NCBI GenBank assembly: GCA_027487835.1
Contig: JAIYCU010000013.1
Coordinates: forward strand, 22,856 to 86,855
From: Bacteroidota bacterium
GTDB taxonomy: Bacteria > Bacteroidota > Bacteroidia > UKL13-3
Direction: 5' to 3'
DNA length: 64,000 nt
The notes under the pieces are model-generated. The model worked only from the letters and a program-made list of their open reading frames with translations, had not been told where the DNA came from and searched no databases. Position 1 is the stretch's first letter; each line of letters opens with the position of its first letter. A program made the position numbers and the translations under genes. This document shows positions 24,919-50,941 of the stretch, in pieces.

Positions 24919-26301
24919 TTGAACCCAAATTCTTACCAACCCAACGATACCATTTGTGCTTTGGCAACCCCTGCCGGACTTGGCGCCATTGGCGTAATCC
25001 GCTTAAGTGGAACCAAGGCCATTGCCATTGCAAACCAATGTTTTATAGGCAAGGACCTAACTCAAGTAGCCTCGCATACGGCTCATTTTGGACGCTTGGT
25101 TCAAACCGAAACCATTATTGACGAGGTATTAGCTACCGTTTTTGTTGAACCCAAAAGCTATACAGGCGAAAATACCGTTGAAATTAGCTGCCATGGCTCT
25201 CCGTATATTCAACAGAAAATTCTTGAAACACTGGTTGAAAGGGGCGCACGCTTGGCCCAACCCGGAGAGTTTACCTTAAGGGCTTTCTTAAATGGGAAAT
25301 TAGACCTTACCCAGGCAGAAGCGGTGGCAGATTTAATTGCTTCCGACTCAGAGATGAGTCATAAAACGGCCATGAACCAAATGCGGGGCGGCTTCTCTAA
25401 AGAAATTGCATTGCTCCGCGAAAAGCTCATCAACTTTGCGTCGCTCATTGAATTGGAACTCGACTTTAGCGAAGAAGATGTGGAGTTTGCCAGCCGACCA
25501 GAACTACATACCTTGGTGAGTAACTTGCATGTTATGCTGCGCAACTTGGCAGATAGTTTTAAAACCGGAAATGCCATTAAAAATGGCGTACCTACCGTGA
25601 TTGCTGGCAAACCCAATGCTGGAAAATCTACCTTGCTCAATGCCCTCATCAAAGAAGACAGGGCCATTGTAAGCGATATTGCTGGCACCACCAGAGATAC
25701 CATTGAAGAAGTATTTAGCATTGGCGGAATCAACTTTAGGCTCATAGATACAGCGGGTATCAGAACCCATACTGCTGATTTAATTGAAAGCATTGGCATT
25801 GAAAAAACCTACGAGAAAATTAGGCTGGCAAGTATTGTGGTGTATTTATTTGATGCCATTACCACCAGCCCAGAAAGTTTAGCAAACGAGTTGGCAGAAT
25901 TTAAAACCTTGGATGCCATTGTTATTCCTGTTGCCAACAAAATTGATTTGGCCGAGACAAATGCGCTACAACAAAAGTTTGCAGCCTTTGAGAACCTTAT
26001 TCTGTTAAGTTCTAAAACGCAAGATGGTTTGAACCAATTGTATGAACGCTTGCGAGCAGTGGTAGAAACAGAGGCGGGCAGAGATGATGTCATCATCACC
26101 AATATCAGGCATTTTAAAGCCTTGAGCGATGCCGCGCAATCCTTGGCGCAAGTATTAGAAAGCATGCAGATCAACCGCACAGGCGAGCTCTTGGCCTTCG
26201 ACATTCGCAAGGCCATCTTTCACCTAGGAGAAGTAACTGGGGAAATCACCAATGATGATTTATTAGCGAATATCTTTAGTAAGTTTTGTATTGGGAAATA
26301 G
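24919..26301 (+). CDS. mnmE: tRNA modification GTPase MnmE (TrmE)
   Basis: DTICALAT, SYTGE, GKPNAGKS, DTAG, NKID and C-terminal FCIGK. Confidence 0.98.
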   Translation: MNPNSYQPNDTICALATPAGLGAIGVIRLSGTKAIAIANQCFIGKDLTQVASHTAHFGRLVQTETIIDEVLATVFVEPKSYTGENTVEISCHGSPYIQQKILETLVERGARLAQPGEFTLRAFLNGKLDLTQAEAVADLIASDSEMSHKTAMNQMRGGFSKEIALLREKLINFASLIELELDFSEEDVEFASRPELHTLVSNLHVMLRNLADSFKTGNAIKNGVPTVIAGKPNAGKSTLLNALIKEDRAIVSDIAGTTRDTIEEVFSIGGINFRLIDTAGIRTHTADLIESIGIEKTYEKIRLASIVVYLFDAITTSPESLANELAEFKTLDAIVIPVANKIDLAETNALQQKFAAFENLILLSSKTQDGLNQLYERLRAVVETEAGRDDVIITNIRHFKALSDAAQSLAQVLESMQINRTGELLAFDIRKAIFHLGEVTGEITNDDLLANIFSKFCIGK

Positions 26302-26392
26302 CCATGGACGATTGTCCATGGTTGATGGACGATGGTCCATGGTTGATGGACGATGGTCCATGGTCGATGGTCCATGGTCCATGGTCCATAGT
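26302..26392 (+). repeat. heptamer tandem array (ATGGTCC/ATGGTCG/ATGGACG), ~13 units
   Basis: Starts immediately after the mnmE stop codon; directly visible. Confidence 0.9.
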
Positions 26393-26397
26393 AACAG

Positions 26398-26425
26398 CCG
26401 GTCGCCGAGCCTTAGCCGAGGCGCC
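26398..26425. repeat. short GC-rich REP-like element
   Basis: CCGGTCGCCGAGCCTTAGCCGAGGCGCC resembles Bacteroidota REP-type repeats as I recall them; single copy in this window. Confidence 0.35.
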
Positions 26426-26448
26426 ATGCAGTATTTAGAATCTAACCA

Positions 26449-26522
26449 TACACCCTATTATAGGTATTTAATGTAAGCCGTGGATTGGGCATGTTTGAAT
26501 AAAAACAAATCAAACAAACCGG
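26449..26522 (+). repeat. palindrome module, copy 1 (variant ending AAACAAATCAAACAAACCGG)
   Basis: TACACCCTATTATAGGTATTTAATGTAAGCCGTGGATTGGGCATGTTTG; similar to copies 2-4. Confidence 0.8.
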
Positions 26523-26720
26523 GACGGTAGGGTGCGGCTGGGATCCAACGGAAGAGCGAACTTGAAAGATTCCGGCATGAGCGGCGTTGGGCTGTGCGAC
26601 AAGGAATCTTTTAAGTTGGTTCCGTTGGGGGCCTTTTTTGGTTACTTTTTTGGCCAAACAAAAAAGTAACAAGAGCAAAAGAGCTAAGCCAATGTATGAA
26701 GCAAAATTTCGATAGTAAAA
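26523..26720. other. ~200-bp GC-rich structured insertion (MITE-like or ncRNA)
   Basis: Stems CCAACGGAA/TTCCGTTGG and AACTTGAAAGATTCC/GGAATCTTTTAAGTT, plus hairpin GTTACTTTTTTG-gccaaa-CAAAAAAGTAAC. Absent between the paralogous copies 3 and 4. Confidence 0.55.
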
Positions 26721-26736
26721 TGATTGTGCAACAATT

Positions 26737-26825
26737 ACACCCACTTATAGGTATTTAATGTAAGCGGTGGATTGGCTATGTTTGTTTTAATAAGCGATAT
26801 AGTTTAGGGTATTGAATGGTTATGC
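26737..26825 (+). repeat. palindrome/promoter/attI-like module, copy 2
   Basis: ACACCCACTTATAGGTAT, TATGTTTG at 26777, ends GGGTATTGAATG|GTTATGC with GTT at 26819. Confidence 0.85.
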
Positions 26826-26919
26826 GAAACCCTTAGTCGACATAGGAACTTCAAACATTGTATCTTTGAACGATCAGTTAAAAAAAAATAAATTAATCTA
26901 ATTTTAAAATTCAAACAAA

Positions 26920-27792
26920 ATGAATAAACAACTACTAAAAATAATGTATGCTTTCATCGTTACAGCAATGATGTATACTTCAAGTGCAATTGCACAAATT
27001 GTTTACACGGATGTGAATCCTGATTCAACTTTGTACTGTAGCAATTGTACTTTAAACTATAATCTAGATTTAAATAATGACACAAATAACGATTTCATTT
27101 TAACAACATTTCACTATGCACCTCCCCAAAAAGGTATAAGTAAACAAAGCCAAGTAACTGCCAGTCCATTAAATGGCAATGCTATAAAAGATACTTTGGT
27201 TAATTCCATTAATGTTTCAATTCCTTTACAATTTAATACTGTAATTGACAACAACTTGTTATTAAACCAATCCTGGCAAACATCGGGACCACAAATTTTG
27301 AAAAATGGTGTATTCGACGGGGGCTCTGATGATGTAGTTTGGGGACTATGGGACAGTTTAACAGATTATTATTTAGGATTAAGAATATTGCAATCAGGGC
27401 AAGCATACTATGGTTGGGTGAGATTGAGGGTTGATATATCAATTTATTATGCCTCTGTTATTATAAAGGATTATGCTTTCAACTCCATTCCCAACCAACC
27501 CATTCTTGCAGGGCAAACAGTTGCAACAGGAATAATCGAAAATTCATTTGCTTCATCAATGAATCTTTTCCCTAATCCAGCCTCAAATCATCTCACCATC
27601 GATTTAGGTAGCAACAACAAAAAGTTTCAAGTAACTATTGCAGATATTACTGGAAAAGTCATGTACACTACCATGGCAACAGAAACACAAAAAGTAGAAG
27701 TGAACACAAACGATTTTGCAGAGGGAATTTATGTTGTGCAAATTCAATCAGAAGAATTTATTGAGAAGAAGAAATTTATCATAAAAAAATAA
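26920..27792 (+). CDS. T9SS type A sorting domain protein (cassette 1)
   Basis: Signal peptide, QIVYTDVNPD, YGWVRL, LFPNPA...GIYVVQI sorting domain; has its own TATCTTTG motif at 26861. Confidence 0.85.
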   Translation: MNKQLLKIMYAFIVTAMMYTSSAIAQIVYTDVNPDSTLYCSNCTLNYNLDLNNDTNNDFILTTFHYAPPQKGISKQSQVTASPLNGNAIKDTLVNSINVSIPLQFNTVIDNNLLLNQSWQTSGPQILKNGVFDGGSDDVVWGLWDSLTDYYLGLRILQSGQAYYGWVRLRVDISIYYASVIIKDYAFNSIPNQPILAGQTVATGIIENSFASSMNLFPNPASNHLTIDLGSNNKKFQVTIADITGKVMYTTMATETQKVEVNTNDFAEGIYVVQIQSEEFIEKKKFIIKK

Positions 27793-27834
27793 AGTATTAG
27801 CGCAATTTAAACACGCGAATCTTTGCTTTCGGTC

Positions 27835-27929
27835 GGGTATTCGCATAAAAGCACCTACCCAAAAGGCAGGGTTTCGAGTTCCAAAGACAGTTTTGTGGTA
27901 ACAGAAGAATCAGTTCACCCAAGTTAATT
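27835..27929 (+). other. truncated attC-like site closing cassette 1
   Basis: GGGTATTCGCATAA(A) complements the cassette start GTTATGCGAAACCC; followed by AGCACCTACCCAAAAG; the right arm appears deleted. Confidence 0.6.
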
Positions 27930-28076
27930 TACACCTATCCCCTATTTTAAATTTACCCACTTACAGGTATTTAATGAAAGTAGTAGATTTAGCATGTTTA
28001 AATGAAAACAAATCAAACAAACCGGATTTTGCACCAATGACACCCACTTATAGGTATTTGATGAAAGCCATGGATT
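27923..28076 (+). repeat. palindrome modules, copies 3 and 4 (tandem)
   Basis: GTTAATTTACACC...TACCCACTTACAGGTAT...AAACAAATCAAACAAACCGG, then CACCCACTTATAGGTATTTGATGAAAGCCATGGATT. Confidence 0.8.
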
Positions 28077-28137
28077 AAAAATTGGAAACCTAACTAATTT
28101 TTATTTCTTTCGAACTAACCATAAAACCAAAATAGTT

Positions 28138-28650
28138 ATGAAAGATCAAATCACCTTAGACCGCATTAAATTAATGCACCCCTTACTTAGGGCAGAAGTT
28201 ACAGAAATGTACCACGAAATATCCCTAGCCTTAACTGGCAGAGCCATTTGTAGGTTTGCCTATACCCTAAGAACTTTTAAAGAACAAGATGAGTTATTTG
28301 CCATTGGCCGAACCAAGCCAGGCAAGAAAGTTACCAATGCCAAAGGTGGCCAAAGCTACCATAACTATGGCTTGGCCTTTGACATTGTATTATTGGTGGA
28401 TAGCAAAGGCACGGGCAAGTTTGACAAAGCCAGCTGGGAAACCAATGTCGACTTTGACCGTGATGGCCGTGCAGATTGGCATGAGGTGGTAAGCATTTGC
28501 AAACGCTATGGCTGGGAATGGGGCGGCGACTGGAAATTCACCGACCTCCCCCACTTCCAAAAAACCATGGGTAAATCTGTCATGCAATTGAAGCAGTTGG
28601 TAGCGGCTGGTAAAGTGGCCCTCAAAAACACACCTTATCCTTTATTATAG
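28138..28650 (+). CDS. M15-family peptidoglycan peptidase (CwlK/endolysin-like)
   Basis: LRT..EQ..L...GRT, VTNAKGGQSYHNYGLAFD, WGGDW...DLPHFQ. Confidence 0.9.
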   Translation: MKDQITLDRIKLMHPLLRAEVTEMYHEISLALTGRAICRFAYTLRTFKEQDELFAIGRTKPGKKVTNAKGGQSYHNYGLAFDIVLLVDSKGTGKFDKASWETNVDFDRDGRADWHEVVSICKRYGWEWGGDWKFTDLPHFQKTMGKSVMQLKQLVAAGKVALKNTPYPLL

Positions 28651-28740
28651 TTCAATATATAAATGCCTAGGGTTCGGTTTGAACGCAAGGCATTTTTTTA
28701 AACTAATATTTTTCAACACCTTTATAAAAAAATAAACAAC

Positions 28741-29070
28741 ATGGGAAAATTTGTAATCACTAAAAGAGCCAATGGCGAGTACCAGTTTAACTTGAAAGCC
28801 GGCAATGGACAAACTATTTTAAGCAGCGAAGGCTATACCACTAAAGCTGGCTGCGAAAACGGCATTGAATCGGTAAGGGTAAACGCACAAGCAGATGAGC
28901 GCTTTGAGCGCAAAACCTCCACCAACGATAAGCCTTACTTTAACCTAAAAGCCAGCAATGGGCAGGTAATAGGCAAAAGCGAACTCTACGAAAGCGAAGC
29001 CGCCCGCGACAATGGCATCGAATCAGTACAGAAGAATGCAGTGGATGCTAGCATAGAAGAAATTAGCTAA
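28741..29070 (+). CDS. YegP/DUF1508 family protein
   Basis: Two tandem FNLKAxNGQxI..SExY...NGIESV repeats. Confidence 0.9.
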   Translation: MGKFVITKRANGEYQFNLKAGNGQTILSSEGYTTKAGCENGIESVRVNAQADERFERKTSTNDKPYFNLKASNGQVIGKSELYESEAARDNGIESVQKNAVDASIEEIS

Positions 29071-29127
29071 AACAAAGCTTTAAAAAGCGCCTTAAAAGGC
29101 TATTTCCTCAGGCACAAAAGCCAAACC

Positions 29128-29254
29128 TTAATTATTTAACAACCCAATTCTCTTTTTCCAAAAAATACCCATTTATGGGTATAGGATGGGAAATGGGATT
29201 GGGTATTTTTGATTTAATAACCGATAGAAAGTTTCGGGTTTTAAATAGTTATAA
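29128..29254 (+). repeat. palindrome/promoter/attI-like module, copy 5
   Basis: ATACCCATTTATGGGTAT (29165-29182), TATTTTTG at 29204, CCGATAGAAAGTTTCGGG, GTT at 29248. Confidence 0.85.
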
Positions 29255-29275
29255 GCAACCTCAAAAACATTAAAA

Positions 29276-30031
29276 ATGGAATACAATTTAAAGGAACATG
29301 GTGACCATTTAGAAAGAAATTATAATGACTTTATTAGAAAATATTTCAATAATTATGAAGACGTTTGGAAAATATTCATAGGAAATAAAGGAAATGACAC
29401 AAAAGCGGAAATAGTTGGGATTTCAATAGATTTAGACAACAAACGACAAAATTTTTCTGAGCATACTTATACAATATTGCAATCACTGATTCTTATACAC
29501 AGATTAATTGAAAAAGGAGAATTTACTAAGACCATTAGCAATACAACGGAGGACATTTTAGACTTACAAAATAATTTGCTTTTGTTTTTTACACATTTGG
29601 GACGAATTAACGATAACGTAGAATCCGCCACCCATTTTATAGACCTGAAATCCTCTGAAACAACAGAATTACTAAAAGAGTATTATCATCAACGACATAT
29701 TTTAGTGCATGGGAAAATGGTTCCAATTATATTTAAGCAAAATGGAGAAATTCTTTTACCTGAATTGAGCAAAAATGGAACAGACATTACAGGCTGGTAT
29801 CATAAGGAGCATTCTTGGAAGGACATAAATGAGCTGCCGAAATCAGTACTTGAACAAACAGCTATAAAACTATATTATGAACTAATACCAAAACTCAATG
29901 AAATATTTGGAGTATTCAAAAAGAAAATTGAAAACGATCTAAAATGTAAAGGTTTACAAATTAAATTCAAGCAAGAAAACTATCATGAAATTCACAGACA
30001 TGGCAGCGGTTCTTTTGACAATTCACCTTAG
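29276..30031 (+). CDS. hypothetical protein with HEPN-like Rx4H motif (cassette 2)
   Basis: Helical 251-aa protein containing RHILVH. Confidence 0.5.
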   Translation: MEYNLKEHGDHLERNYNDFIRKYFNNYEDVWKIFIGNKGNDTKAEIVGISIDLDNKRQNFSEHTYTILQSLILIHRLIEKGEFTKTISNTTEDILDLQNNLLLFFTHLGRINDNVESATHFIDLKSSETTELLKEYYHQRHILVHGKMVPIIFKQNGEILLPELSKNGTDITGWYHKEHSWKDINELPKSVLEQTAIKLYYELIPKLNEIFGVFKKKIENDLKCKGLQIKFKQENYHEIHRHGSGSFDNSP

Positions 30032-30094
30032 AAACCAATAAGTGTATATGGACTTGATAAAACTGACATAAAGAAATGGGGAAAATGAGGCAGC

Positions 30095-30226
30095 TTATAA
30101 CAGCACCTAAAAGAAATAGGTGGTTTTGTGTTACGCAGAAACATTTTTGGTGCATGGAAATTAGTGTCTTCGCAACTATATTCGTGCTGAAAGGCACCAA
30201 CTTCTTGTAGCTGCAAATCGTTATGC
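30095..30226 (+). other. intact attC-like site
   Basis: TTATAAC...GTTATGC ends; inner arms GCACCTAAAAGAAATAGGTG / CACCAACTTCTTGTAGCTGC pair at 16 of 20 positions. Confidence 0.75.
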
Positions 30227-30235
30227 CTAATTTAT

Positions 30236-31216
30236 ATGAACCGAAAGAGTTTATTTAATCAACTTGAATTAGCATATGCGCCTTTGACTGCATATGAGTT
30301 TGCTGTTAACAGGGACGACAAAATGATAGAAAGAGCCCTTAAAAATGCAAGTCTATATATAATTGGACAACGACCTGTGATTACCTTTGAAAAAGTAATA
30401 CCTGATTATGATCAATATCAACTACATTTTGAAATACATCAAAAGAACAATGAAAATATTTTATCATGTAAACTTCCCTTAATCCAACCAATCGTTGGAT
30501 CCAATGTTGATGATACTATTTATGTTGCATTCAATTATCTTAACAAAACGCTTCGTCAGAATACTCCACCATTTAATAATATTCATGGATTTTCACTTTC
30601 AAATCACACGGAGATAGGGAATGATTTTTTGATTTGGTTTTCACCTGAAAAGCTTTTGCAAAATTGGTGGAAAGGACATATTAACTGTGAAATCAAAGGA
30701 GATTTTAAATCATTTTTAAAATATAAAGTTCACTATGTTGGCAAAGCTACCAAGCAAGGAATTTTAAAACGGTTGACAGGTCATTCCACATTTCAGGATA
30801 TTCTATCATTGGAATCCCCAGTTACTAAGAAGCAATTACCAGCAAATGAAATTGTAATTCTTCCATTTGGCTTTCAAGACAACTTATTTATAGAAGAATT
30901 TGGATTGAAATCGACCAAAAAAGGTATGGTAGCTGCAATGCAAGGTGAAAATTTCCCTGACCAAGAAAAAATATTCCTTGATGCAGAAAAAGCTCTTATA
31001 AAGGCCATTCAGCCGACCTATAATAAAGAAATGTTTAATAGCTACCCTGAAAGCAAAGATGGACTTTATAATGAAAAGTTAAATGTAATTTCATATACTT
31101 TTATGGACCCAATATCATTGAATTATGCAAAAGGAGAAATTAATGGAGGCTTGACTCCAATTGGCGGCGATACAATATTGATTATTGAAAATATAGAATT
31201 TAAGCTTGTAAAATAA
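30236..31216 (+). CDS. hypothetical protein, possible divergent GIY-YIG-like nuclease (cassette 3)
   Basis: HYVGKA...KRLTGH...AEKALI...PTYN pattern. Confidence 0.45.
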   Translation: MNRKSLFNQLELAYAPLTAYEFAVNRDDKMIERALKNASLYIIGQRPVITFEKVIPDYDQYQLHFEIHQKNNENILSCKLPLIQPIVGSNVDDTIYVAFNYLNKTLRQNTPPFNNIHGFSLSNHTEIGNDFLIWFSPEKLLQNWWKGHINCEIKGDFKSFLKYKVHYVGKATKQGILKRLTGHSTFQDILSLESPVTKKQLPANEIVILPFGFQDNLFIEEFGLKSTKKGMVAAMQGENFPDQEKIFLDAEKALIKAIQPTYNKEMFNSYPESKDGLYNEKLNVISYTFMDPISLNYAKGEINGGLTPIGGDTILIIENIEFKLVK

Positions 31217-31227
31217 GGAAAAACTAG

Positions 31228-31355
31228 GCATAACAGCACCCAAAAGAAAATTTCTTCTCGTGGTCCACTGGGAAAAATTTTCTATATTTGATATGCAGGT
31301 TTCACTTACGTTATTCAAATACGGGCTAACTGCGGTTAGATGCTAATCGTTACAA
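31228..31355 (+). other. attC-like site (degenerate or chimeric)
   Basis: GCATAAC-AGCACC...GATGCTAATC-GTTACAA. Confidence 0.6.
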
Positions 31356-31400
31356 ATAATTGTAGTACTACCCTTCATCTATCAACCAAGCAGACAAAAA

Positions 31401-32204
31401 ATGATAACCATTCAAGAACTACTTTTTAATCGCAAGCTTGACAAAGCTGCAAAAATCAAACTCGTAAGACACAAACAAGTTGGTCGAGACTTATACAATC
31501 TTTATCGGACTAACAGACCCGAGTTTTTAGCTTATCAAAACTCACAAACAAAGGATATTTTTAATGGGGTTGACTACATCGTTTCATTTATTGGCGAAGA
31601 AGGTTTGTTATCTAGGTTTATTGGCGTTTACAAACTAACAGACAGAAAAAAATTAGCTGAGGACCATTTTGAATATCAAATGGAAGAAGTGAAGGAATTT
31701 TTTGACGACTTAAAAGAAAGAGTCATTATCAAATGGGAAAATGCAATTTCTTGGCATCAATGGATAAAGAATGAAATGGAAGTGTTAGAAATTCACCCTG
31801 GTCTTCATTACAAACAATTCACAGACTACTCTGACTTCATTCTCAACTTTCACGAACTCAAAGAAATTGTAAGCAAACAATATGGTGACTGGAAAAAAAT
31901 GCTTTCAGTAACCAAAGGCATTTACCTAATCAGCGATACTAAGACCGGTAAACTTTATGTTGGTTCGGCATACGGAGAGGAAGGCATTTGGGGACGTTGG
32001 ACTAATTACGTTTTAACAAACGGACATGGGGACAATAAAACCTTAAAGGAACTTATCACTGACGACCCAAGCCACGGAAATAATTTTCAATTCTCAATTT
32101 TAATGTTGTTACCTCGAACAATTACGGCAGACGAAGCCATTAAAAAAGAACGCCTTTTTAAAAATAAATTAGGCACAAACTCATTCGGACTTAACAACAA
32201 CTAA
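31401..32204 (+). CDS. GIY-YIG nuclease family protein (cassette 4)
   Basis: GIYLISD...LYVGSAYG...GRW..Y, KE..FK..LG.....LN.N. Confidence 0.9.
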   Translation: MITIQELLFNRKLDKAAKIKLVRHKQVGRDLYNLYRTNRPEFLAYQNSQTKDIFNGVDYIVSFIGEEGLLSRFIGVYKLTDRKKLAEDHFEYQMEEVKEFFDDLKERVIIKWENAISWHQWIKNEMEVLEIHPGLHYKQFTDYSDFILNFHELKEIVSKQYGDWKKMLSVTKGIYLISDTKTGKLYVGSAYGEEGIWGRWTNYVLTNGHGDNKTLKELITDDPSHGNNFQFSILMLLPRTITADEAIKKERLFKNKLGTNSFGLNNN

Positions 32205-32240
32205 AATAACAACTAGGCTGAAAGGACGAAGAAAAACTAA

Positions 32241-32310
32241 TATTAACAAGCGTTTGGGGCAATAAGTGTCAACCATTCCCCTACTTCCCTAAGCACTAAA
32301 AACGTTAATT
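32241..32310 (+). other. short (70-bp) attC-like site
   Basis: TATTAAC...GTTAATT with imperfect inner arms; its GTT is the first triplet of module copy 6. Confidence 0.65.
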
Positions 32311-32415
32311 TATAGCCACCCCTTTTTTAAAATATACCCACTTATGGGTATTTTATGAGTGACATGGATTGGGTATGTTTGTTTTAATAGCCGATGTGAA
32401 GTTTCGGGTATTGAA
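32304..32415 (+). repeat. palindrome/promoter/attI-like module, copy 6
   Basis: ATACCCACTTATGGGTAT (32334-32351), TATGTTTG at 32374, CCGATGTGAAGTTTCGGGTATTGAA; the terminal GTT is missing. Confidence 0.85.
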
Positions 32416-32466
32416 AAACTGTGAATAAGCTTATAGAATCGTTACTAACAGACAGAAATTATAAAA

Positions 32467-33342
32467 ATGAAATTAGTTAAACCAGAAAAATTAAATCTCT
32501 TAACACACAAAGAACTTAATGAAAGTTGGGTGCAACAAGTTATTGCCGACGATCCAACAATTTTAGGACTTGGCGACCTAATTTTAAAAGATAAAGAAAG
32601 AATACACCCAAAAGCAGGTCGCCTTGATATTTTACTTCAAGATGCAGAAAGTAAAAGAAGATATGAAGTTGAAATCCAACTTGGGAAAGTGGACGAAAGC
32701 CATATAATTAGAACTATTGAATATTGGGATATTGAAAGAAAACGTTATCCTCAATATGACCATTGTGCCGTTATTATTGCTGAAGACATTACAAGCAGGT
32801 TTTTAAATGTAATTGGGTTATTTAATGGATATATACCATTAATAGCAATTCAAATGTCTGCTTATCAATTAAATGATAATGAAGTTTCTTTGATATTCAC
32901 AACTGTTCTTGATGAACTCAATTTAGGACTCGTGGAAGAAGATGAAGAAACAAAAGAAGTCACTGACAGAAATTATTGGGAAACTAATAAAGGAACAAAA
33001 CAAACGGTTGCATTAGCTGACCAACTTTTGGAAATCGTAAAAGAATTTAGTCCAAATTTAGAATTGAAATACAATAAGTATTACATAGGACTTGCGAAAA
33101 ATGGACAACCAAATAACTTTGCAATTTTCAGAGCCAAGAAAAGTAGTTTGTTACTAGAAATTAGACTAAAACAATCACCTGAAATCCAAGACAAACTAGA
33201 TGAAGCAAAACTTGACACAATGGATTATGAAAACAAATGGGGACGTTATAGAATTAGAGTAGATAAAAACGATATTACAAAACATAAAGAACTTTTAAAG
33301 AACTTAATGAAACAATCATATGGAATGGTAACTGACGAATAA
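32467..33342 (+). CDS. NucS/EndoMS-like PD-(D/E)XK nuclease + DUF5655-like domain (cassette 5)
   Basis: GRLDILL...YEVEIQLG..DESHIIRTIEYW; C-terminal LKYNKYYIG. Confidence 0.7.
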   Translation: MKLVKPEKLNLLTHKELNESWVQQVIADDPTILGLGDLILKDKERIHPKAGRLDILLQDAESKRRYEVEIQLGKVDESHIIRTIEYWDIERKRYPQYDHCAVIIAEDITSRFLNVIGLFNGYIPLIAIQMSAYQLNDNEVSLIFTTVLDELNLGLVEEDEETKEVTDRNYWETNKGTKQTVALADQLLEIVKEFSPNLELKYNKYYIGLAKNGQPNNFAIFRAKKSSLLLEIRLKQSPEIQDKLDEAKLDTMDYENKWGRYRIRVDKNDITKHKELLKNLMKQSYGMVTDE

Positions 33343-33354
33343 AAAAAGCAGAAA

Positions 33355-33487
33355 GCACAACAACAGTTACACGAGATTTGGGTTTTAGGTAAACTATAAA
33401 TTTGGTTTTGTACTTAAAAGTTAAGGCATAAATCGAAGAGTTAAGGCATGCTTTTTCCAAACCTTGGGAAGCTGCAAACAGTGATGT
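33355..33487 (+). other. degenerate attC-like site
   Basis: GCACAAC...CCAAACCTTGGGAAGCTGCAAACA-GTGATGT; same GCTGCAAA right arm as the 30095-30226 site, with GTT mutated to GTG. Confidence 0.55.
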
Positions 33488-33521
33488 AATATTTTAGAAA
33501 ACCTGACAGATAACAAGAACT

Positions 33522-35351
33522 ATGGCAATATTAAGTCCGACATTTGAGGCAATAAAAAGGCAAAAGGTACAGCCGACAGAAGGCGAATGGACTTTATTAA
33601 ATTTCTTGTTGGACAACTTGGACGACACTTATCAAATTTGTTATCAACCATATCTTAATGGCGATAATCCCGACTTTGCAATTATGCGAAAAGAAAGCGG
33701 CGTTTTACTCATCGAAGTTAAAGACTGGAATTTAAATCAATATTATGTTGATGAAAAAACAAAATGGAGATTACAAAAGGACAACACGCCAATTAAATCA
33801 CCACTTAATCAAGTTGAGAAATATAAATCAAATTTATTTCATTTACATATAGAAGAACTTTTCAAAAAAAGTGTAAAAAGCAAAAATCATTGGGCAACTG
33901 TAAATTGTGCAGTCTATTTCCACAATGCAACTGAACAAAATTTAACAAGTTTCTTACTTGACGGTTTTGATAAACAAGAAGATGAGTCATATAGAAAATT
34001 TGTTAGTTATTTTGGGTTATTAGGCTATAACTCTCTTACCAAAGACAAACTAAATTCGCTTCTAACAAGATTTTGGCTAAACAAAACATCATATTACTTT
34101 GATGAAACACTTTACAACAGCTTTCAACGGTATTTAAAACCTCCAATTCATCAATTAGAAGAAGGGATAAATATAATTTATTCAAAAGAACAGCAAGAAC
34201 TAATCAGAAGTGAAGTACGACCAAGAAGAAAAATAAAAGGAGTTGCCGGAAGTGGGAAGACTTTGGTATTAGCAAAACGAGCAGTAAATGCTTACAAAAG
34301 AACTGATGATCAAATTTTAGTTTTAACCTATAATCTATCACTTAAAAATTATATTCACGACAGAATTAGTGATGTTAGAGAAGAATTTAATTGGACTAAT
34401 TTTTACATAACAAATTACCATCAATTTTTCAAAACACAAGCAAACAATTACAATTTAGAAATTCAAAATCTTGGTGCCTGGCAGGATACTTCTTTCTTTG
34501 AAAGTGTAAAAAAAAACATAAAAAAATATGATGTAGTTCTAATAGATGAAATTCAAGATTATATGCAATCTTGGATAGACATTATTACAACTTACTTCAC
34601 TCATTCAGAAACAGAGTTTGTCGTTTTTGGAGACGAAAAACAAAATATATACGAAAGAGAACTTGACGAAAACAATGAAATTATTGTTCGACAAATTCCT
34701 GCACGTTGGAACAAATCTTTAAATGTGTCGCATCGTTTTGCGAGTAATATTGGAAACATTGCAATAAAATTTCAAAAAAAAATATTTGGACTTAAATATG
34801 GTGCAGACGAATTAAAGGTAATGTCTCAATTTGATTTTGAAAAACGGATAATCGAATACCACTTTTTCCATGCATTTACAGCAGATCTTTTATTTGAAAA
34901 GGTTTACAATGTTTTGGAACGTAATCAAATTCACTCTTCTGATGCAGGAATCTTATGCTCAAAAGTTGAAATTTTAAGAGCTATTGACTTTTCTATACGA
35001 ACAATAAAACACGAAAACACTTCAACTACATTTGAAAGTCAAGAAGAATATTTAGAATACAAAGACAATAATTCCAATATTGAAGAAATTAGAAGATTAA
35101 GAAAGAATCATTTTTATATGAAAACTGGAACTGTCAAACTTTCAACTATTCATAGTTTTAAAGGTTGGGAAATAGACACTCTATTTTTATTCATTGAAAA
35201 AGAAGAAAACGAAAAGGAATTTGTAAATGCCGAACTAATTTATACTGGACTTACAAGAGCAAGAAAAAATTTAATTATTTTCAATTTAGATAACAGAAAG
35301 TATGACGAATTTTTTAAAGCTGAAATTGAAATAAAATTTGAACACAAATAA
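33522..35351 (+). CDS. NERD nuclease + SF1 (UvrD-like) helicase (cassette 6)
   Basis: PDF...LIEVKDW nuclease motif, Walker A GVAGSGKT, DEIQD, FGDEKQNIY, TIHSFKGWE, YTGLTRA. Confidence 0.9.
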   Translation: MAILSPTFEAIKRQKVQPTEGEWTLLNFLLDNLDDTYQICYQPYLNGDNPDFAIMRKESGVLLIEVKDWNLNQYYVDEKTKWRLQKDNTPIKSPLNQVEKYKSNLFHLHIEELFKKSVKSKNHWATVNCAVYFHNATEQNLTSFLLDGFDKQEDESYRKFVSYFGLLGYNSLTKDKLNSLLTRFWLNKTSYYFDETLYNSFQRYLKPPIHQLEEGINIIYSKEQQELIRSEVRPRRKIKGVAGSGKTLVLAKRAVNAYKRTDDQILVLTYNLSLKNYIHDRISDVREEFNWTNFYITNYHQFFKTQANNYNLEIQNLGAWQDTSFFESVKKNIKKYDVVLIDEIQDYMQSWIDIITTYFTHSETEFVVFGDEKQNIYERELDENNEIIVRQIPARWNKSLNVSHRFASNIGNIAIKFQKKIFGLKYGADELKVMSQFDFEKRIIEYHFFHAFTADLLFEKVYNVLERNQIHSSDAGILCSKVEILRAIDFSIRTIKHENTSTTFESQEEYLEYKDNNSNIEEIRRLRKNHFYMKTGTVKLSTIHSFKGWEIDTLFLFIEKEENEKEFVNAELIYTGLTRARKNLIIFNLDNRKYDEFFKAEIEIKFEHK

Positions 35352-35360
35352 AAAAAACAA

Positions 35361-35515
35361 CACATAAGACGAGTTTTACATAAGAGGCGATTCAGCGCTC
35401 ATAATCAGTTTTGACTTTAATTAAATATTTAGTTTTCAAAAAAAAACATTAGTACTAAAATGAAAGTAAGCGCTACAAAATCCGCTTCTTCACCAAGCGC
35501 CAAAAATCGATAATT
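35361..35515 (+). other. degenerate attC-like site
   Basis: CACATAA(G)...AAGAGGCG / CGCTTCTT...CAAGCGCCAAAAATC-GATAATT; runs directly into module copy 7. Confidence 0.45.
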
Positions 35516-35630
35516 TATAGCTAACCCCTATTTTTAAATATACCCACTTATGGGTATTTTTTGAGTGAGGGGGATTGGGTATGTTTGTTTTAATAACCGA
35601 GGTGAAGTTTTGATTATTGAATGGTTATGC
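35509..35630 (+). repeat. palindrome/promoter/attI-like module, copy 7
   Basis: ATACCCACTTATGGGTAT (35540-35557), TATGTTTG at 35580, ATTGAATG|GTTATGC with GTT at 35624. Confidence 0.85.
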
Positions 35631-35687: not shown

Positions 35688-36653
35688 ATGGGAGCTGTTG
35701 TATTTCCAATTCAAAAATTTTACGACCAGACTTCTGAGTTAGTTGGTATAAAGTCAGGACTTCTTTTAAGTGACACAGATATAAACAGCATCTTAAAAGA
35801 GAAATTTGAGGACACCTTTCTTGACAATCAAAGCAAAGATCAAATTATCAGATTAAGATCTGAGGCGATTGAATTAATGATAAAATATATAAGGATTAGG
35901 ATAGGTAATATCCCATCTGCTCCCAAAGTGAACTACTACAAAATATTAGCAAAGTATCTTAAAGACATAGAAGATTTTAAAATTCACGGTTTATATCTTG
36001 GTTATGCCATAAATCAAACCAATTTAGGTCTAGAAATGACGTATGAATCTCTAAAGAAGGAAATTTCCAAAAACAAAAAGTTAAATGATGAATTAATCGA
36101 TGCTCTAACGTTTACTATTATGGAACAAATTGACGATGGAATTACCTTTCCTCCTTCATATAATCTTGACGGTGCAGCTCCTCTACAATCTTTATTTGAA
36201 CTCGAAGTATTCCCTATGTCTGACAATACATTCATTGATCAAAAGTTCATTGACTACTTAGCAGTTAATGGAAATGAAATTGAAGAAATCCATTGGAGAA
36301 ACTTTGAGCGATTTGTCGCTGAATATTTCCAGAGACAAGGACTGACGGTGGTTTTAGGCTCTGGACAAAATGATGGAGGTGTTGATATTCGAGTATTCAA
36401 CGAAAAGAATACAAAAGATCCCCTGATATTAATTCAATGCAAAAGATATAAGTCTGAAAATAAAGTATCAATTGAGACCGTTAAAGCTTTCCACTCGGAT
36501 GTTGTCTATGAAAATGCGAAACTAGGATTAATAGCAACGACAAGTAGAGTTGCGACTGGAGGGAAGAAAGTTGTTAATGCCCGGAACTACAACATTTCCG
36601 TAGCAGAGAAGGAAAATGTCAAAAAGTGGGCCACAACAATGTGGAATAAATGA
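35688..36653 (+). CDS. Mrr-family restriction endonuclease (cassette 7)
   Basis: WRNFERFVAEYF...DGGVDI...IQCKRY...IATTS (Mrr_cat). Confidence 0.9.
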   Translation: MGAVVFPIQKFYDQTSELVGIKSGLLLSDTDINSILKEKFEDTFLDNQSKDQIIRLRSEAIELMIKYIRIRIGNIPSAPKVNYYKILAKYLKDIEDFKIHGLYLGYAINQTNLGLEMTYESLKKEISKNKKLNDELIDALTFTIMEQIDDGITFPPSYNLDGAAPLQSLFELEVFPMSDNTFIDQKFIDYLAVNGNEIEEIHWRNFERFVAEYFQRQGLTVVLGSGQNDGGVDIRVFNEKNTKDPLILIQCKRYKSENKVSIETVKAFHSDVVYENAKLGLIATTSRVATGGKKVVNARNYNISVAEKENVKKWATTMWNK

Positions 36654-37007
36654 GCAAAAAACTAACGGTTTTATGCTCTTGAAGACTTGAATGCTAATTT
36701 GAAATCACACCCACTTTATAGAAAAGTGGAACGACCTCCTAACAGCCAAAGTTTCGCTGTGCCTGCAAGCCAAGCCATGAATTGAAAATCATCGAATACC
36801 TATAAAACAATTAACCTAATGTGATAAACTCTAGTTGAAAGCAGATTGCTTTGGATAGTACTAACATAGACCAACATGATTGTACTAACTATTTTCTCCA
36901 ATTCCTGAATTTCATTTAACTAATTTCTTTAAATTCGAAACGATCTAAAAGACATTTTGCTCCTTGCATTTGAAAGGTTTGAGATAGGACGCAATTTTTA
37001 TTAAATT

Positions 37008-37436
37008 ATGGAAATAGGTGATTATGATTTATATGAAGGTGGGAAAATAACCTTTAAAGCGACTGTAGGTAAAGTTATCTATAGGATAAAAAGGGCTCCT
37101 AAAAATATTATGCAGTCAGGTGATGACTCATTCTTAACCAATTTTTGGGATGAGGTTTGTGTTCAAGTGCAAGATGAATATTGGACTTGCTGGAGCTTAT
37201 ATGAGTATTATATTGAACAAACAATTTTGAGTATTATAGATGCTTTAACTTACAACAAAAGGAGAGCGTTGTCTTATTTTTTGTATTGGGAAAAAGAATT
37301 TGAAGAGCCTCATGAAGATTTAGGATATTACCCAGACTTGTGCCAAGAGATGTTACTAAACGAGATTTTGGAATTGGCATTAAATTATAGAAACTTAAAG
37401 ATTCAAAAATATTTGGATAGTCGTTATTTAGATTAA
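37008..37436 (+). CDS. hypothetical protein
   Basis: 142-aa ORF with an AT-rich leader; no recognisable motif. Confidence 0.55.
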   Translation: MEIGDYDLYEGGKITFKATVGKVIYRIKRAPKNIMQSGDDSFLTNFWDEVCVQVQDEYWTCWSLYEYYIEQTILSIIDALTYNKRRALSYFLYWEKEFEEPHEDLGYYPDLCQEMLLNEILELALNYRNLKIQKYLDSRYLD

Positions 37437-37453
37437 TGCAAGTTTGAAATCTA

Positions 37454-37912
37454 ATGGAATTTGAAAATTTATATAATAAAAGTCTAGTTAAAGAGCTTAA
37501 AAAACTTCTCAATATGATAGACGATACATTTTCACACCTAAAAGAAAATGGTCATGATGTTTCCTTGTTTGAAATGGGAGAAAGGAAAAGTAAACAAAAC
37601 AAGATGGATTGGAGTGATTATGGCTTCTATCTTTACAGTAGGGATGAGAAAACAATTATTTTTATTGGAATGTGGCTAAGCTATTGGGCGCAAACTGGTA
37701 ACCCACTTACCTTATTCTTATACTCCTATGTTGACAATAAAGATAGGAAACTAAAGCATGAAAGGTTAAACTCATACATTACCAAACGTAAGGAAATTTT
37801 CAATGACCTTGATGAATTTCAAGAATATCTAAATATTAGCATTAATAAGCCCTTATTCAATAATTTTAATGATTATATTAGTCTTATTCAAAGGGTTTAT
37901 GGTTTTACCTAG
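37454..37912 (+). CDS. hypothetical protein
   Basis: 152-aa ORF, co-directional, 17 bp after the previous gene. Confidence 0.55.
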   Translation: MEFENLYNKSLVKELKKLLNMIDDTFSHLKENGHDVSLFEMGERKSKQNKMDWSDYGFYLYSRDEKTIIFIGMWLSYWAQTGNPLTLFLYSYVDNKDRKLKHERLNSYITKRKEIFNDLDEFQEYLNISINKPLFNNFNDYISLIQRVYGFT

Positions 37913-37967
37913 GCAATTAGCATGAAAGTATAATGTTAATCAAAAAATTTAACTTTAAATTACCCTA

Positions 37968-38978
37968 ATGGCGACAAACAAACATGCAACCATCCGTTAC
38001 CTTGCTTTAGATAGATGCTTTAGCAATTTCGGCAAAAGGTTTTTTATTGAAAATTTGATAGAGGCATGTAACCAAGCCATATACGACTATTCTGGCATCA
38101 ATGACGGAATCAAGCGTAGACAAATTTTTGATGATATCGCCTATATGGAGAGTAGCAGTGGTTGGGAAATTCCATTAGAAAGACATAAAGATGGAAGAAG
38201 GGTATATTATAGATATTCTGATAAATCATTTTCCATCAAAAGCCAAGGAATTAATCAAGCTGAGGCGGAACAATTAAAAGAGACCTTGAATATTTTGACT
38301 CGATTCAAAGGAATGCCTCAATTTGAATGGATAGAAGAAATGCGAGTAAGGCTTGAAGAAACATTTAAGTTAAAAGGGAATGCCCAATCGACAGTTGGGT
38401 TTGAACAGAACCCTTATCTAAAAGGATTAAGCCACTTCACTGGGTTGTTTAACGCGATTCAAAATGAAGTAGCTCTTCAAATACGTTATCAGGGATTTAA
38501 GCAAAGTAAGCCTTCACATGTTATTTTACATCCTTGGTATTTAAAACAATATAATAATCGATGGTTTCTATTCGGACTAAATGATGAATTTAAAACTATC
38601 ACAAACTTTGCACTTGACAGAATTATTGAGTTTGAGGATTCAAAAGTGAAGTTTTATAAAAATGAGGAGCTAAACTTCGATGAATATTTTGAGGATGTAG
38701 TGGGTGTAACTGTTAAGAAAGATGCTCCAATAGAAACGCTTTTGATAAAAGTAAATAAAGAAATTTGGCCATATATTGAGAGTAAACCATTACATGGTTC
38801 TCAAAAAGTAAAAAATAAAACAGAAGCAGAAGTTATTATTGAACTCAGTATGCAGGTTAATCATGAACTGCTAGCATTGTTGTTTTCCTATATGGATCAA
38901 CTTGAATTAGTGGAGCCCGACTCGGTTAGACAATCGATTAAACATGTTTCTAATTCCATATATAAAAAGTATTTTTAA
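37968..38978 (+). CDS. WYL-domain transcriptional regulator (wHTH-WYL-WCX)
   Basis: N-terminal RY..LDRC...RRQIFDDI..M wHTH; HPWYLKQYNNRWFLFG, ALDRI, KPLHGSQ, VEPDSVR. Confidence 0.92.
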   Translation: MATNKHATIRYLALDRCFSNFGKRFFIENLIEACNQAIYDYSGINDGIKRRQIFDDIAYMESSSGWEIPLERHKDGRRVYYRYSDKSFSIKSQGINQAEAEQLKETLNILTRFKGMPQFEWIEEMRVRLEETFKLKGNAQSTVGFEQNPYLKGLSHFTGLFNAIQNEVALQIRYQGFKQSKPSHVILHPWYLKQYNNRWFLFGLNDEFKTITNFALDRIIEFEDSKVKFYKNEELNFDEYFEDVVGVTVKKDAPIETLLIKVNKEIWPYIESKPLHGSQKVKNKTEAEVIIELSMQVNHELLALLFSYMDQLELVEPDSVRQSIKHVSNSIYKKYF

Positions 38979-38980
38979 CT

Positions 38981-39016
38981 ATGCACTTGCACTGCACAAT
39001 AAGATATAACCTTTGT
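38981..39016 (+). promoter_or_regulatory. candidate WYL operator plus near-consensus -7 element
   Basis: TGCA-N7-TGCA (ATGCACTTGCACTGCACA) followed by ATAACCTTTG, in the 58-bp gap before the MTase-HK gene. Confidence 0.4.
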
Positions 39017-39036
39017 TGAACATTAAATGAGATGCT

Positions 39037-41673: not shown

Positions 41674-42823
41674 ATATAAGGTACTTTGGTTTGACGATGA
41701 GCATGAATCTTTTGAATCACTCAAGGATGATGCGAATCAGAAAGGAATAAAACTTATAGGTTATACCAATGCAGAAGAGGGTATTGCCGAACTGGAATCA
41801 AACCTGATTTCTTTTGATGCCGTTATAGTGGATGGTAAGTTCTATAAAAATGCCAGCGCAACAGGTGATGCTGTGAATGATGGTGCATTATTTAACGTGG
41901 CAAGATTTCTGGACAAAAGAGAAGGTATCAAGAAAATCCCCTGGTTTATTTTTTCTGGTCAGCCAGATTTCCTAAACTCATCAAACCCTATTGCGGCTGA
42001 ATACAAAGGAAACAAAGTTTATAATAAGAACTTTGATGCAGATATTGAACAGTTATGGATGGATATTAAAAAGGAAGCCGACCAACAGCCAGATACGCAA
42101 ATTCGCCATAAGTACCATCGAGTTTTTGAAGTCTGCACAGAAAAGTATATTGGTGAACTTGCCTACCACGATTTACTCTCAATGTTAAAAAAAGAAAATT
42201 CCGAAAAAGCCTTTACAGATCCTAATCTTTATTTCAATCCATTAAGAAAAATAATGGATGATTTGTTTATGGCAAGTAATAAATACGGATTAATGCCCGA
42301 TGTGTTTGTAAAACCATCAGTTGCATTAAATGAATCAAGCAAGTTTCTTTCAGGTATTGTTGAGAAAGGATATAAATTAGATACTCCTGTTTTTCCAAAA
42401 GTTGTTTCCGATCATGTTCGCTGCATATTGGCAGTTTGTCAACCTGCTTCACACCGCTCCGAATTAGATAGCTTTATATCTCAAGTAAATACTCCTTACC
42501 TTTTAATGAGCGTAACCTACCAATTATTGGATGTATTGCTTTGGTTTAAAGACTTTATAGATGCCAATACCGATATAGTATTCAATAAGACTAAATATAT
42601 GCTTGTAGACACAAGTAGTTCTTCATGTGCAATTACAGGAACTATCGAACAAGATAGAAGTAAAAATTATCACTGTGGCGAAATAATAATTAATTACACT
42701 CAATTTAATAAAAACGGATTTAAAATAGGTGACACCATAAGAATTTTAAAAGTTGCTAATAATACCAACGAAAAAACAATGCATCAATATCCCAAAAATG
42801 CAGTGCAAACAGAGAAAATTTAA
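41657..42823 (+). CDS. receiver (REC) domain protein with uncharacterised C-terminal output
   Basis: KVLWFDDE, FDAVIVD (phosphoacceptor), FIFSG, YNK; overlaps the kinase stop by 17 bp (alternative ATG at 41666). Confidence 0.8.
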   Translation: MKSMNEYKVLWFDDEHESFESLKDDANQKGIKLIGYTNAEEGIAELESNLISFDAVIVDGKFYKNASATGDAVNDGALFNVARFLDKREGIKKIPWFIFSGQPDFLNSSNPIAAEYKGNKVYNKNFDADIEQLWMDIKKEADQQPDTQIRHKYHRVFEVCTEKYIGELAYHDLLSMLKKENSEKAFTDPNLYFNPLRKIMDDLFMASNKYGLMPDVFVKPSVALNESSKFLSGIVEKGYKLDTPVFPKVVSDHVRCILAVCQPASHRSELDSFISQVNTPYLLMSVTYQLLDVLLWFKDFIDANTDIVFNKTKYMLVDTSSSSCAITGTIEQDRSKNYHCGEIIINYTQFNKNGFKIGDTIRILKVANNTNEKTMHQYPKNAVQTEKI

Positions 42824-42835
42824 TTAGATAATATT

Positions 42836-46506: not shown

Positions 46507-46508
46507 GT

Positions 46509-47604: not shown

Positions 47605-47663
47605 GCATTAGAATTGTGGCTAATAAATAAAGTTGAACTAATTATATTTGAAAAAAAAAGATA

Positions 47664-49055: not shown

Positions 49056-49056
49056 A

Positions 49057-50939: not shown

Positions 50940-50941
50940 AT

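Follow-up and report, generated by a model that had tools for sequence, protein, structure and literature searches.

Why does a non-coding unit of about 115 bp recur between the gene cassettes of a bacterial locus that carries no integrase gene, and what does it do there? The question is raised by a stretch of 64,000 nt (the window) from a freshwater Bacteroidota bacterium, which corresponds to positions 22856-86855 of contig C27 (C27:22856-86855) in a genome of 3.38 Mb and 46 contigs. Integrons have one attI site and one cassette promoter (Pc) per platform, and cassettes far from Pc are generally regarded as mostly silent. In the window, by the repeat finder and by reading of the sequence, the unit is present in 7 forward copies and 1 inverted copy. 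On balance, we lean towards reading it as a composite non-coding module for expression and docking that belongs to an integron-like system. Its palindrome would be bound by a response regulator of the NarL/LuxR family near a typical activator position, its TAnnTTTG promoter would read into whatever lies downstream, and the end of its leader (CGGGTAT-N6-GTTA) would be a double-stranded attI-like site, where an IntI/Xer-like recombinase would insert attC cassettes between G and TT. About two dozen such modules lie in this genome, some in attC arrays and some at ordinary loci, so that captured genes would land behind a signal-controlled promoter and not behind a single Pc next to intI.

A unit of fixed geometry

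The unit was first described from the letters of the window alone (the sequence-only reading), and its 7 forward copies and 1 inverted copy were recovered at the proposed positions by a repeat finder and by an nhmmer profile built from the 3 best copies (expectation value E 2e-33 to 1e-2; Table 1). The geometry proposed at the same time was also found in the sequence. The palindrome starts 30-31 nt after GTTAATT/GATAATT (for example, ATACCCA at 32334 after GTTAATT at 32304), the promoter-like box follows 40 nt past the palindrome start (TATGTTTG at 32374-32381), and the GTT end follows at 84 nt (GTTATGC at 35624, palindrome start at 35540). The unit contains one inverted and three direct copies of GGGTAT. 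The 16-mer TACCCAnnnnTGGGTA occurred 5 times in the window with at most 1 mismatch, against 0.14 expected, and 0 of 100 shuffles reached 5. Identity among the copies was 63-89% according to the repeat finder. Two partial units, 27923-27999 and 28035-28076, stand in tandem in a gene-free interval.

The cassette array and the junction at the unit's 3' end

Relatives of two inter-gene elements of the window (30090-30231 and 31223-31360) occur at other places in the genome. Twelve copies could be aligned over about 142 nt, and RNAalifold found 18 pairs in this alignment, 15 of them with compensatory changes. The resulting structure is an imperfect hairpin with ..AAC and GTT.. outer boxes and paired inner boxes, as in attC sites. 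A covariance model built from the 12 copies (R1) identified 24-31 sites in the genome (31 at E <= 1) and 6 in the window, all on the plus strand and each just past an open reading frame (ORF). Two of the window sites scored strongly (131 and 87 bits) and four weakly (22-26 bits, E 0.008-0.07). Single-strand DNA folds of the same six candidates were uninformative alone (z -2.2 to +0.8), and the comparative model was needed. The ..AAC start of the attC sites matched the reverse complement of the GTT.. start of their own cassette at 74/90 informative positions, compared to 33/115 in a control in which attC starts were paired with the start of the next cassette. The window array is a genuine integron-type cassette array, and the flanking sites are indeed of attC type, as had been suspected.

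The sequence-only reading had placed the start of the units exactly where an attC ends. R1 put the 3' GTT box of an attC at 32304 (match 32236-32315) and at 35509 (match 35357-35520); at the attC starting at 27838 the R1 alignment overran, and the junction at 27923 was read only by eye. At the other end, the next cassette had been proposed to begin at the GTT of the unit. The GTT box of the unit and the R'' box of the first attC downstream agreed at 24/35 informative positions in 7 pairs from three species, a value that 0 of 20000 random pairings reached (mean 11.0, standard deviation 2.9). In the window, the box GTTATAAGC at 29248 agrees with the R'' box GCTTATAAC at 30093 in 9/9 positions (5/5 informative), and the box at 26819 agrees with the R'' box of the attC at 27838 in 5/5 informative positions. 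The pairs on contig C9 and at locus L067 matched at 4 of 5; the other three pairs are taken up below. Judged by this complementarity, the 3' GTT box of the unit is a true cassette junction.

This end is not an attC, since no conserved fold was found in the leader: RNAalifold predicted 0 pairs for 22 leaders, and the attC model had no match on the 3' part of the unit. A mini-attC within the leader (AATAAC .. CCGA/TCGG .. GTTAT) was considered and rejected, with 0 consensus pairs and a 4-bp helix that was paired in 63.2% versus 60.3% when shuffled. The unit and the gene that follows it might also form one cassette, which we rejected weakly on a single case compared by eye (GTTAATTTA at 32304 versus the attC at 33350, 1/5).

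We also note a second, short attC-like hairpin (..TAAC AGC .. loop with AAGCCAAGCC .. GTTGAAC), which lies outside the 142-nt model and often stands immediately to the left of units.

The recombinase and a probable likeness of the unit end to attI

The absence of an integrase from the window, pointed out at the outset, was borne out: PF00589 has 4 matches in the whole genome, all of them outside the window. A recombinase gene is located 18 kb before the window (C27:4080-4972). Its best score was obtained with the integron-integrase model, and five attC sites then follow on the same strand. In both our genome and that of a sister species, G009, the first cassette starts 17 nt past the recombinase stop codon, with 9/9 complementarity (in our genome, GTTACCTGC versus GCAGGTAAC). 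The gene of G009 is intact (locus L063, 1892-2950) and 98.8% identical to the broken copy of our genome. Its protein scored 222.9 bits with TIGR02249 (cut-off 265) and 212.9 bits with the XerA model. In the alignment of the 353-aa frame with VchIntIA (2a3v), query residues 75-248 correspond to chain residues 7-182 and residues 270-343 to 247-320; about 40 residues of the IntI-specific insertion in the catalytic domain are missing. The C-terminal tail (..GGRTIQSPLAQL) aligns with the tail of IntI4. By its sequence, the recombinase is IntI-like and Xer-like, without the IntI-specific insertion, and co-oriented with its cassettes.

Homologues of the recombinase were detected in 20/25 genomes of the genus, many of them on the same contig and strand as attC matches. 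The attC model matched 23/25 genomes of the genus and 112/119 genomes of a family sample, in 17/17 genera. In the available part of the IntegronFinder 2.0 paper (PMC9024848), integrons are described as nearly absent from the phylum Bacteroidota; a recombinase without the insertion that detection tools require may explain the gap between our counts and published surveys. In G127, a family member assembled as one contig, high-scoring 142-nt attC-type copies are scattered singly around the whole chromosome and do not form one array. These scattered copies suggest that cassettes often insert outside the platform in this family.

The attI crossover could be located in 8 more genomes of the genus, with complementarity of 9/9 in 7 and 8/9 in 1. 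The first cassette starts 17-137 nt downstream of the recombinase gene in 6/8 of them, and at 212 and 751 nt in two. The left flank of these attI sites reads C.G(G/A)TAT-N6-GTTA in 5/8 cases (6/8 if a weaker CCATAT is included), and the units end in CGGGTAT-N6-GTTA. With a weight matrix derived from the 8 attI flanks, 12/15 unit ends came within the best 5% when ranked among the 4813 non-coding GTT[AG] sites of the genome, with a median rank of 1.6%, and the R' flanks of attC sites had a median of 39% against all 53759 GTT[AG] sites. Past the last 14 nt or so, the attI regions of the 8 genus members had no significant homology to the unit (best E 0.02). A copy of the unit beside a tyrosine recombinase gene, which the sequence-only reading had suggested looking for, was not found: there was no match at the genome's own recombinase locus or at that of G009 (L063).

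Tandem repeats were observed upstream of the broken recombinase gene (L031, C27:1-12000, positions 4973-5560), three of about 60 bp and about nine of about 22 bp (GGGTACCCCCTTGGTGTAACAT-like). In the sister species, the intact gene also has a tract of related repeats in front of it (L063, about 1650-1900).

The promoter box and the palindrome

Housekeeping promoters of Bacteroidota have TTTG at -33 and TAnnTTTG at -7. The TTTG of the TAnnTTTG box is invariant in 22/22 aligned leaders, where it forms the most conserved columns, and from this we infer a putative promoter of the Bacteroidota type. The box and the type IX secretion sorting domains encoded in the window both point to Bacteroidota as the source. 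The palindrome, TACCCAC-TT-ATGGGTA, has a 7-2-7 layout with inverted heptamers and a 2-bp spacer. Its centre lies 31.5 nt before the promoter box, which corresponds to about -43 when -7 is taken as the centre of the box, and a further TGGGTAT copy overlaps the box.

According to the available part of PMC4549865, the Escherichia coli regulator NarL prefers inverted heptamers that are 2 bp apart, as in the engineered site TACCCCTAAAGGGGTA, and activating NarL sites are located at -40 to -49. The palindrome of the unit shares the TACCCnn / nnGGGTA halves and the spacer with such sites, is identical to TACCCCTAAAGGGGTA at 11/16 positions, and lies near -43, within the range of activating sites. 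It differs from them in that it occurs in another phylum and with another type of promoter, that its cognate regulator is a predicted one, and that an extra half-site covers the promoter box. We regard the palindrome as most likely a predicted binding site for a response regulator of the NarL/LuxR family, and as more likely a site of this kind than an integrase site. This assignment had not been foreseen by the sequence-only reading, and neither had the occurrence of units throughout the genome or the broken recombinase.

By itself, with neither a GTT box nor an attC, the palindrome was found 45-60 nt upstream of a two-component operon in 3/3 species examined, namely the present one and two sister species. 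The first two products of the operon are membrane or secreted proteins; a HisKA_3 kinase and a Response_reg+GerE regulator (contig C28, 10319-10930) come last. Orthologues of the regulator with at least 60% identity were found only in the three unit-carrying species; the next best sequence was 46% identical. On contig C9 (C9:48443-51359, minus strand), a unit precedes a gene whose 560-aa product belongs to no known family. The next gene encodes a 259-aa regulator of the GerE/LuxR type, which is another candidate for a regulator associated with the units.

Units elsewhere in the genome and in relatives

A search of the whole genome with the 3-copy seed returned 24 rows at E <= 1e-3, which represent 22 distinct places. 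A core model spanning the palindrome to the promoter box identified 24 places in the genome (contigs C27, C9, C14, C22, C29, C3, and C28) and 13 further places in loci of relatives. For 21/24 core copies, a co-oriented ORF of at least 60 aa with an ATG start codon begins no more than 200 nt downstream. Genome-wide, the genes behind the units are unrelated to one another and include those for pirin, cupin, aldo-keto reductase, lipocalin-like, GNAT, DoxX, SIR2-like, and NACHT-Mrr proteins and for hydrolases. The window units precede genes for a protein with a type IX secretion system (T9SS) tail, a PDC-S18 candidate, an Mrr-like nuclease, and a PD-(D/E)xK protein.

The unit was present in 5/41 genomes searched, namely the genome studied here, three sister species, and one genome with a weak match. 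An exact-pattern scan for the unit core yielded 3 stretches in 2 records of metagenome-assembled genomes from a genome contig collection, and 0 stretches in a metagenome contig collection.

Relatives had been predicted to vary in gene content at the GTT junctions, and they do. Three related units from three species (29133 in the window, L066, and L052) share homology up to GTTA, followed by unrelated genes without blastp or blastn match to each other. Orthologues of mnmE, the gene at the left edge of the island, are 91-92% identical in two sister species and are followed there by different DNA, which also bears units. An M15 peptidase gene, a DUF1508 gene, and a structured non-coding stretch recur beside units in varying order. 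Contigs from 4 DNA metagenome runs of a single study, which may be the source of this DNA, contained a single arrangement and no cassette-level or unit-level variants; the sole long joint in these contigs, from 30231 to 31223, is accounted for by the attC repeat.

The M15-family peptidase gene stands directly upstream of a unit in the window (28138-28650), at C9:69440-69931, and at L066 3464-3976 (two species), as if gene and unit were travelling together.

Weighing the docking reading against its alternatives

That the units are docking sites with a promoter and an operator had been one of two proposals of the sequence-only reading. It is favoured by the junction, the attI likeness, the lack of a fold, the TTTG box, and the variable cargo, and it is opposed by the units without attC. 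The genome-wide search for the unit was divided in the same way, with some of the 24 core copies at cassette junctions and about half without an attC nearby. The transcription start, the binding and direction of control by the regulator, and recombination at the unit are all steps that we infer from sequence comparison.

Several observations weigh against a docking role. About half of the genome's units have no attC model match nearby (C9:1-8 kb, C9:51-55 kb, C14, C3, C28), so that most units may be plain promoters. Conversely, arrays without units were found in 20/25 genomes of the genus searched, and the system therefore does not need units. The genome's own recombinase gene is broken, with two internal deletions, one of about 199 bp and the other of about 14-28 bp, when compared with that of G009. 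Among the junction pairs, the one at 32420 in the window matched at 0/5 positions, and those at L064 and on C29 at only 3/5. The attI sites of the lineage itself (G000, G009, G006) lack GGTAT, so that the likeness rests mainly on distant members of the genus, and 3/15 unit ends score like background. The genome encodes 9 GerE-type regulators, and the co-occurrence of unit and regulator is not independent evidence, because the three unit-carrying relatives are the closest ones (mnmE 82-92% identical) and all of this is shared by descent.

A bolder extension of the docking reading can be offered only tentatively. It posits a decentralised integron, in which an IntI-like recombinase lacking the insertion would serve about two dozen orphan attI-like sites, dispersed on the chromosome and within arrays. 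A single two-component system would govern the promoters of all these sites, so that the cassettes, many of them single-gene phage-defence systems, would form one signal-inducible regulon and not a silent reserve read from one Pc.

The main rival explanation, which is compatible with docking and to which we grant a real though minor chance, treats the unit itself as a mobile gene-less promoter cassette that is moved between G and TT on both sides and has an attI-type 3' end. In three window units (27923, 32304, and 35509), the sequence shared among units sets in at the TT of the GTT box that ends the attC before them, or directly beside it; together with the 3' junction, this places both ends of these units at crossover points. 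Some units elsewhere have the same left arm, TTAATTTA..CCCCTATTTT. There are also precedents, as far as the available parts of the two sources go: IntI1 excises and inserts cassettes bounded by partial attI sites (PMC12901181), and promoter activity is reported for gene-less cassettes of Vibrio superintegrons (10.1101/2023.11.21.568050). However, most copies differ from one another in their left flanks, which do not end an attC; only 3/8 window copies have an attC GTT box there, and the array-head units of relatives (L062, L067) had no attC model match to their left within the loci examined. By eye, the unit contains no inverse-core box complementary to its own start, and it has no conserved hairpin. 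Finally, we found neither a pair of empty and filled sites nor any polymorphism of the unit, the four metagenome runs having one and the same arrangement.

An explanation that we consider unlikely takes the unit for nothing more than a promoter and leader that the members of a two-component regulon have in common. Off-target cassettes inserted at GTTs of the leader would have been kept because they were expressed, and the attI likeness would be compositional. This would account for the half of the units without attC nearby. Off-target insertion also seems common in the family, given the attC-type repeat scattered singly in its one-contig member. It is among the origins proposed for integrase-less attC clusters in the available part of PMC8618304, and insertion at genomic attG sites is mentioned in that of PMC12901181. 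Yet 6/7 pairs from three species have their junction at one and the same GTT box, whose distance from the promoter does not vary, and the background against which 12/15 unit flanks reached the top 5% already controls for non-coding composition.

It is rather improbable that the palindrome and the GGGTAT motifs are binding sites of the recombinase (ATACC / GGTAT arms with an 8-bp spacer, plus accessory direct repeats) and not an operator. attI1 does have recombinase-binding direct repeats, DR1 and DR2, and the one inverted and three direct GGGTAT copies of the unit would fit such a role. GGTAT or GGATAT also stands 6 nt before GTTA in 5/8 attI sites of the genus, and in two attI regions a very small search picked up, 12-35 nt upstream, a stretch that weakly resembles the palindrome (best E 0.02). 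Against this, the palindrome precedes the two-component operon in three species with neither GTT box nor attC, its position is fixed relative to the promoter box, and its 7-2-7 geometry matches NarL-type sites as described in the available part of PMC4549865. That the unit is a miniature transposable element or insertion-sequence remnant targeting attC sites is very improbable, for although short non-coding copies of it are scattered over the genome, some of them directly at attC ends, its only inverted repeat is the internal palindrome and no inverted pair joins its ends, no target duplications were seen by eye, its orientation is tied to the downstream ORF in 21/24 copies, and its copies are far from near-identical.

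Relation to known systems

As in an attI/Pc platform such as that of class 1 integrons, the unit would provide a double-stranded GTT crossover for attC cassettes directly downstream of the promoter that expresses them. It differs in that there are many units per genome, none by the recombinase gene and some within arrays, and in that each has its own putative palindromic operator; the recombinase, for its part, is co-oriented with the cassettes and lacks the IntI-specific insertion. The cassettes of the delta-attI type in class 1 and 2 integrons resemble the unit in having a partial attI, with an A-rich stretch and then GTTRRRY, which replaces attC within arrays. To judge from the available part of PMC12901181, these cassettes carry an ORF and no promoter or operator, whereas the unit holds no gene, would serve regulation, and occurs outside arrays as well.

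Gene-less promoter cassettes of Vibrionaceae superintegrons are likewise non-coding segments that restart transcription within arrays. In the accessible portion of 10.1101/2023.11.21.568050, they appear to be ordinary cassettes with their own attC; the unit lacks a folded attC, forms one family with a shared operator, and also occurs at non-array loci. ORF-less promoter cassettes from oral metagenomes are cited as reference 16 in PMC8618304, which was likewise available in part. The window array also resembles the clusters of attC sites lacking integrases (CALIN), since it has attC sites and no integrase nearby; single attC sites are also scattered across the family. Here, a conserved promoter and attI-like module stands at the head of the arrays or of parts of them, which does not form part of the CALIN description in that portion of PMC8618304.

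Promoters inside arrays, gene-less promoter cassettes, partial attI sites in arrays, and integrase-less attC clusters are thus already known, to the extent that the cited sources were available. In the literature outside supplements, which might list such elements, we found no repeated family that unites an operator, a promoter, and an attI-like end and occurs within arrays as well as at ordinary loci, no description of an attC system this pervasive in a Bacteroidota family, and no link between insertion-lacking recombinases and attC arrays.

Integrase-less attC clusters are usually treated as debris. If a repeated insertion point is indeed combined with a regulated promoter, stockpiled cassettes could be expressed on demand, which would explain how such clusters stay useful. 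Genes captured horizontally, which in the present case serve mostly in defence, would then come under a regulatory circuit of the host.

Features of the window and its variable island

The features of the window, together with the loci of the short attC-like hairpin in relatives, are collected in Table 1. The variable island begins just past mnmE, and a defence island (37008-54040) follows the array.

Table 1. Annotated features, in window coordinates unless another locus is named
Feature	Position	Strand	Evidence and remarks
mnmE, tRNA modification GTPase	24919-26301	+	Pfam MnmE_helical, TrmE_N, MMR_HSR1; variable island begins just past stop codon
Partial unit, degenerate palindrome and promoter-like box, alternative 3' part	26448-26500	+	nhmmer E 1.5e-5; core model E 6e-9; structured non-coding stretch follows
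Unit	26733-26825	+	nhmmer E 1e-14 (match to 26824); 3' box GTTATGC at 26819 = next cassette start
Cassette gene, secreted protein with T9SS C-terminal sorting domain	26920-27792	+	Pfam Por_Secre_tail 5.5e-16
attC-type site, weak, ends at GTTAATT	27838-27925	+	R1 24.3 bits, E 0.02; R'' box TTCGCATAAA matches cassette start GTTATGCGAA
Partial unit: left arm, palindrome, promoter-like box, alternative 3' part	27923-27999	+	nhmmer E 7e-6
Partial unit, palindrome region only	28035-28076	+	nhmmer E 0.01; core model E 2e-5
M15 peptidase gene (28138-28650) and DUF1508 gene (28741-29070)	28138-29070	+	Pfam; no attC after; homologues by units in sister species and on C9
Full unit, perfect palindrome TACCCATTTATGGGTA	29133-29254	+	nhmmer E 2e-28 (match 29133-29252); 3' box GTTATAAGC at 29248 = next cassette start
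Cassette gene, 251 aa	29276-30031	+	No Pfam or PADLOC match
attC-type site	30090-30231	+	R1 131 bits; member of covarying alignment (15/18 pairs)
Cassette gene, 326 aa, no unit in front	30236-31216	+	No Pfam or PADLOC family; start GTTATGCC versus R'' box GGCATAAC, 5/5 informative
attC-type site	31223-31360	+	R1 87 bits
Cassette gene, UzuA-like GIY-YIG protein (Uzume defence)	31401-32204	+	PADLOC UzuA 9.7e-92, full length
attC-type site, weak, ends at GTTAATT	32236-32310	+	R1 21.9 bits, E 0.06
Full unit	32304-32424	+	nhmmer E 2e-33 (match 32305-32423)
Gene behind unit, DUF5655 / PDC-S18 candidate defence protein	32467-33342	+	Pfam, PADLOC
attC-type site, weak	33350-33492	+	R1 26.4 bits, E 0.008
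Cassette gene, NERD-UvrD helicase, candidate defence protein	33522-35351	+	Pfam NERD and UvrD; PADLOC NERD+UvrD 4e-59
attC-type site, weak, ends at GATAATT	35357-35510	+	R1 23.8 bits, E 0.02-0.03
Full unit, 3' box GTTATGC at 35624	35509-35630	+	nhmmer E 1e-32 (match 35510-35629)
Gene behind unit, Mrr-like restriction endonuclease	35688-36653	+	Pfam Mrr_cat 4e-21; no R1 match downstream
Short attC-like hairpin, second type	about 36760-36790
Short attC-like hairpin, second type	L064 5290-5390	-
Short attC-like hairpin, second type	L036 6029-6080
Short attC-like hairpin, second type	L054 3060-3110
WYL regulator	37968-38978
N6-methylase fused to HATPase domain	39037-41673
Type I restriction-modification, hsdM	42836-45202
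Type I restriction-modification, hsdS	45202-46506
DUF6998 and GIY-YIG genes			Interrupt hsd set
GmrSD-N gene	47664-49055		Interrupts hsd set
AAA_15/DUF3696 ATPase gene	49057-50202		Interrupts hsd set
Type I restriction-modification, hsdR	50942-54040
PD-(D/E)xK nuclease-like protein, PDC-S61 candidate defence, behind inverted unit	54216-55112	-	PADLOC PDC-S61 6e-11, RTasPDDEXK 3.6e-8
Inverted partial unit, palindrome and T-rich stretch	55188-55238	-	nhmmer E 1e-4; palindrome 55207-55222 with 1 mismatch; upstream of minus-strand gene 54216-55112

The 298-aa gene behind the inverted unit was considered as an integrase candidate and rejected, because its product is nuclease-like and not a recombinase; in our own reading, D..IDIK in its translation is a putative nuclease motif.

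Between the first two units, a GC-rich, structured non-coding stretch (26495-26680, plus strand) contains a long hairpin and a terminator-like hairpin. Its predicted fold has -68 kcal/mol (z -5.8), and 0/200 shuffles were as good. Part of it (26574-26697) is 96.8% identical to a locus of a sister species, far above the surroundings, and a copy on C9 lacks the central hairpin. Rfam gave no match at gathering scores in the whole window, and only chance-level matches at E <= 1 in 26250-29300. The stretch may be a small RNA transcribed from the unit promoter, or a palindromic insertion.

Tandem arrays with periods of 7, 14, and 21 nt, composed of GGTCCATGG / TCGATGG, were observed at both ends of the island and near 56.4 kb (26290-26399, 55240-55320, and 56360-56620). 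A separate tandem array with a period of about 21 nt (GCATGCAACGCTCCATGTTGAA-like) is located at 55331-55680.

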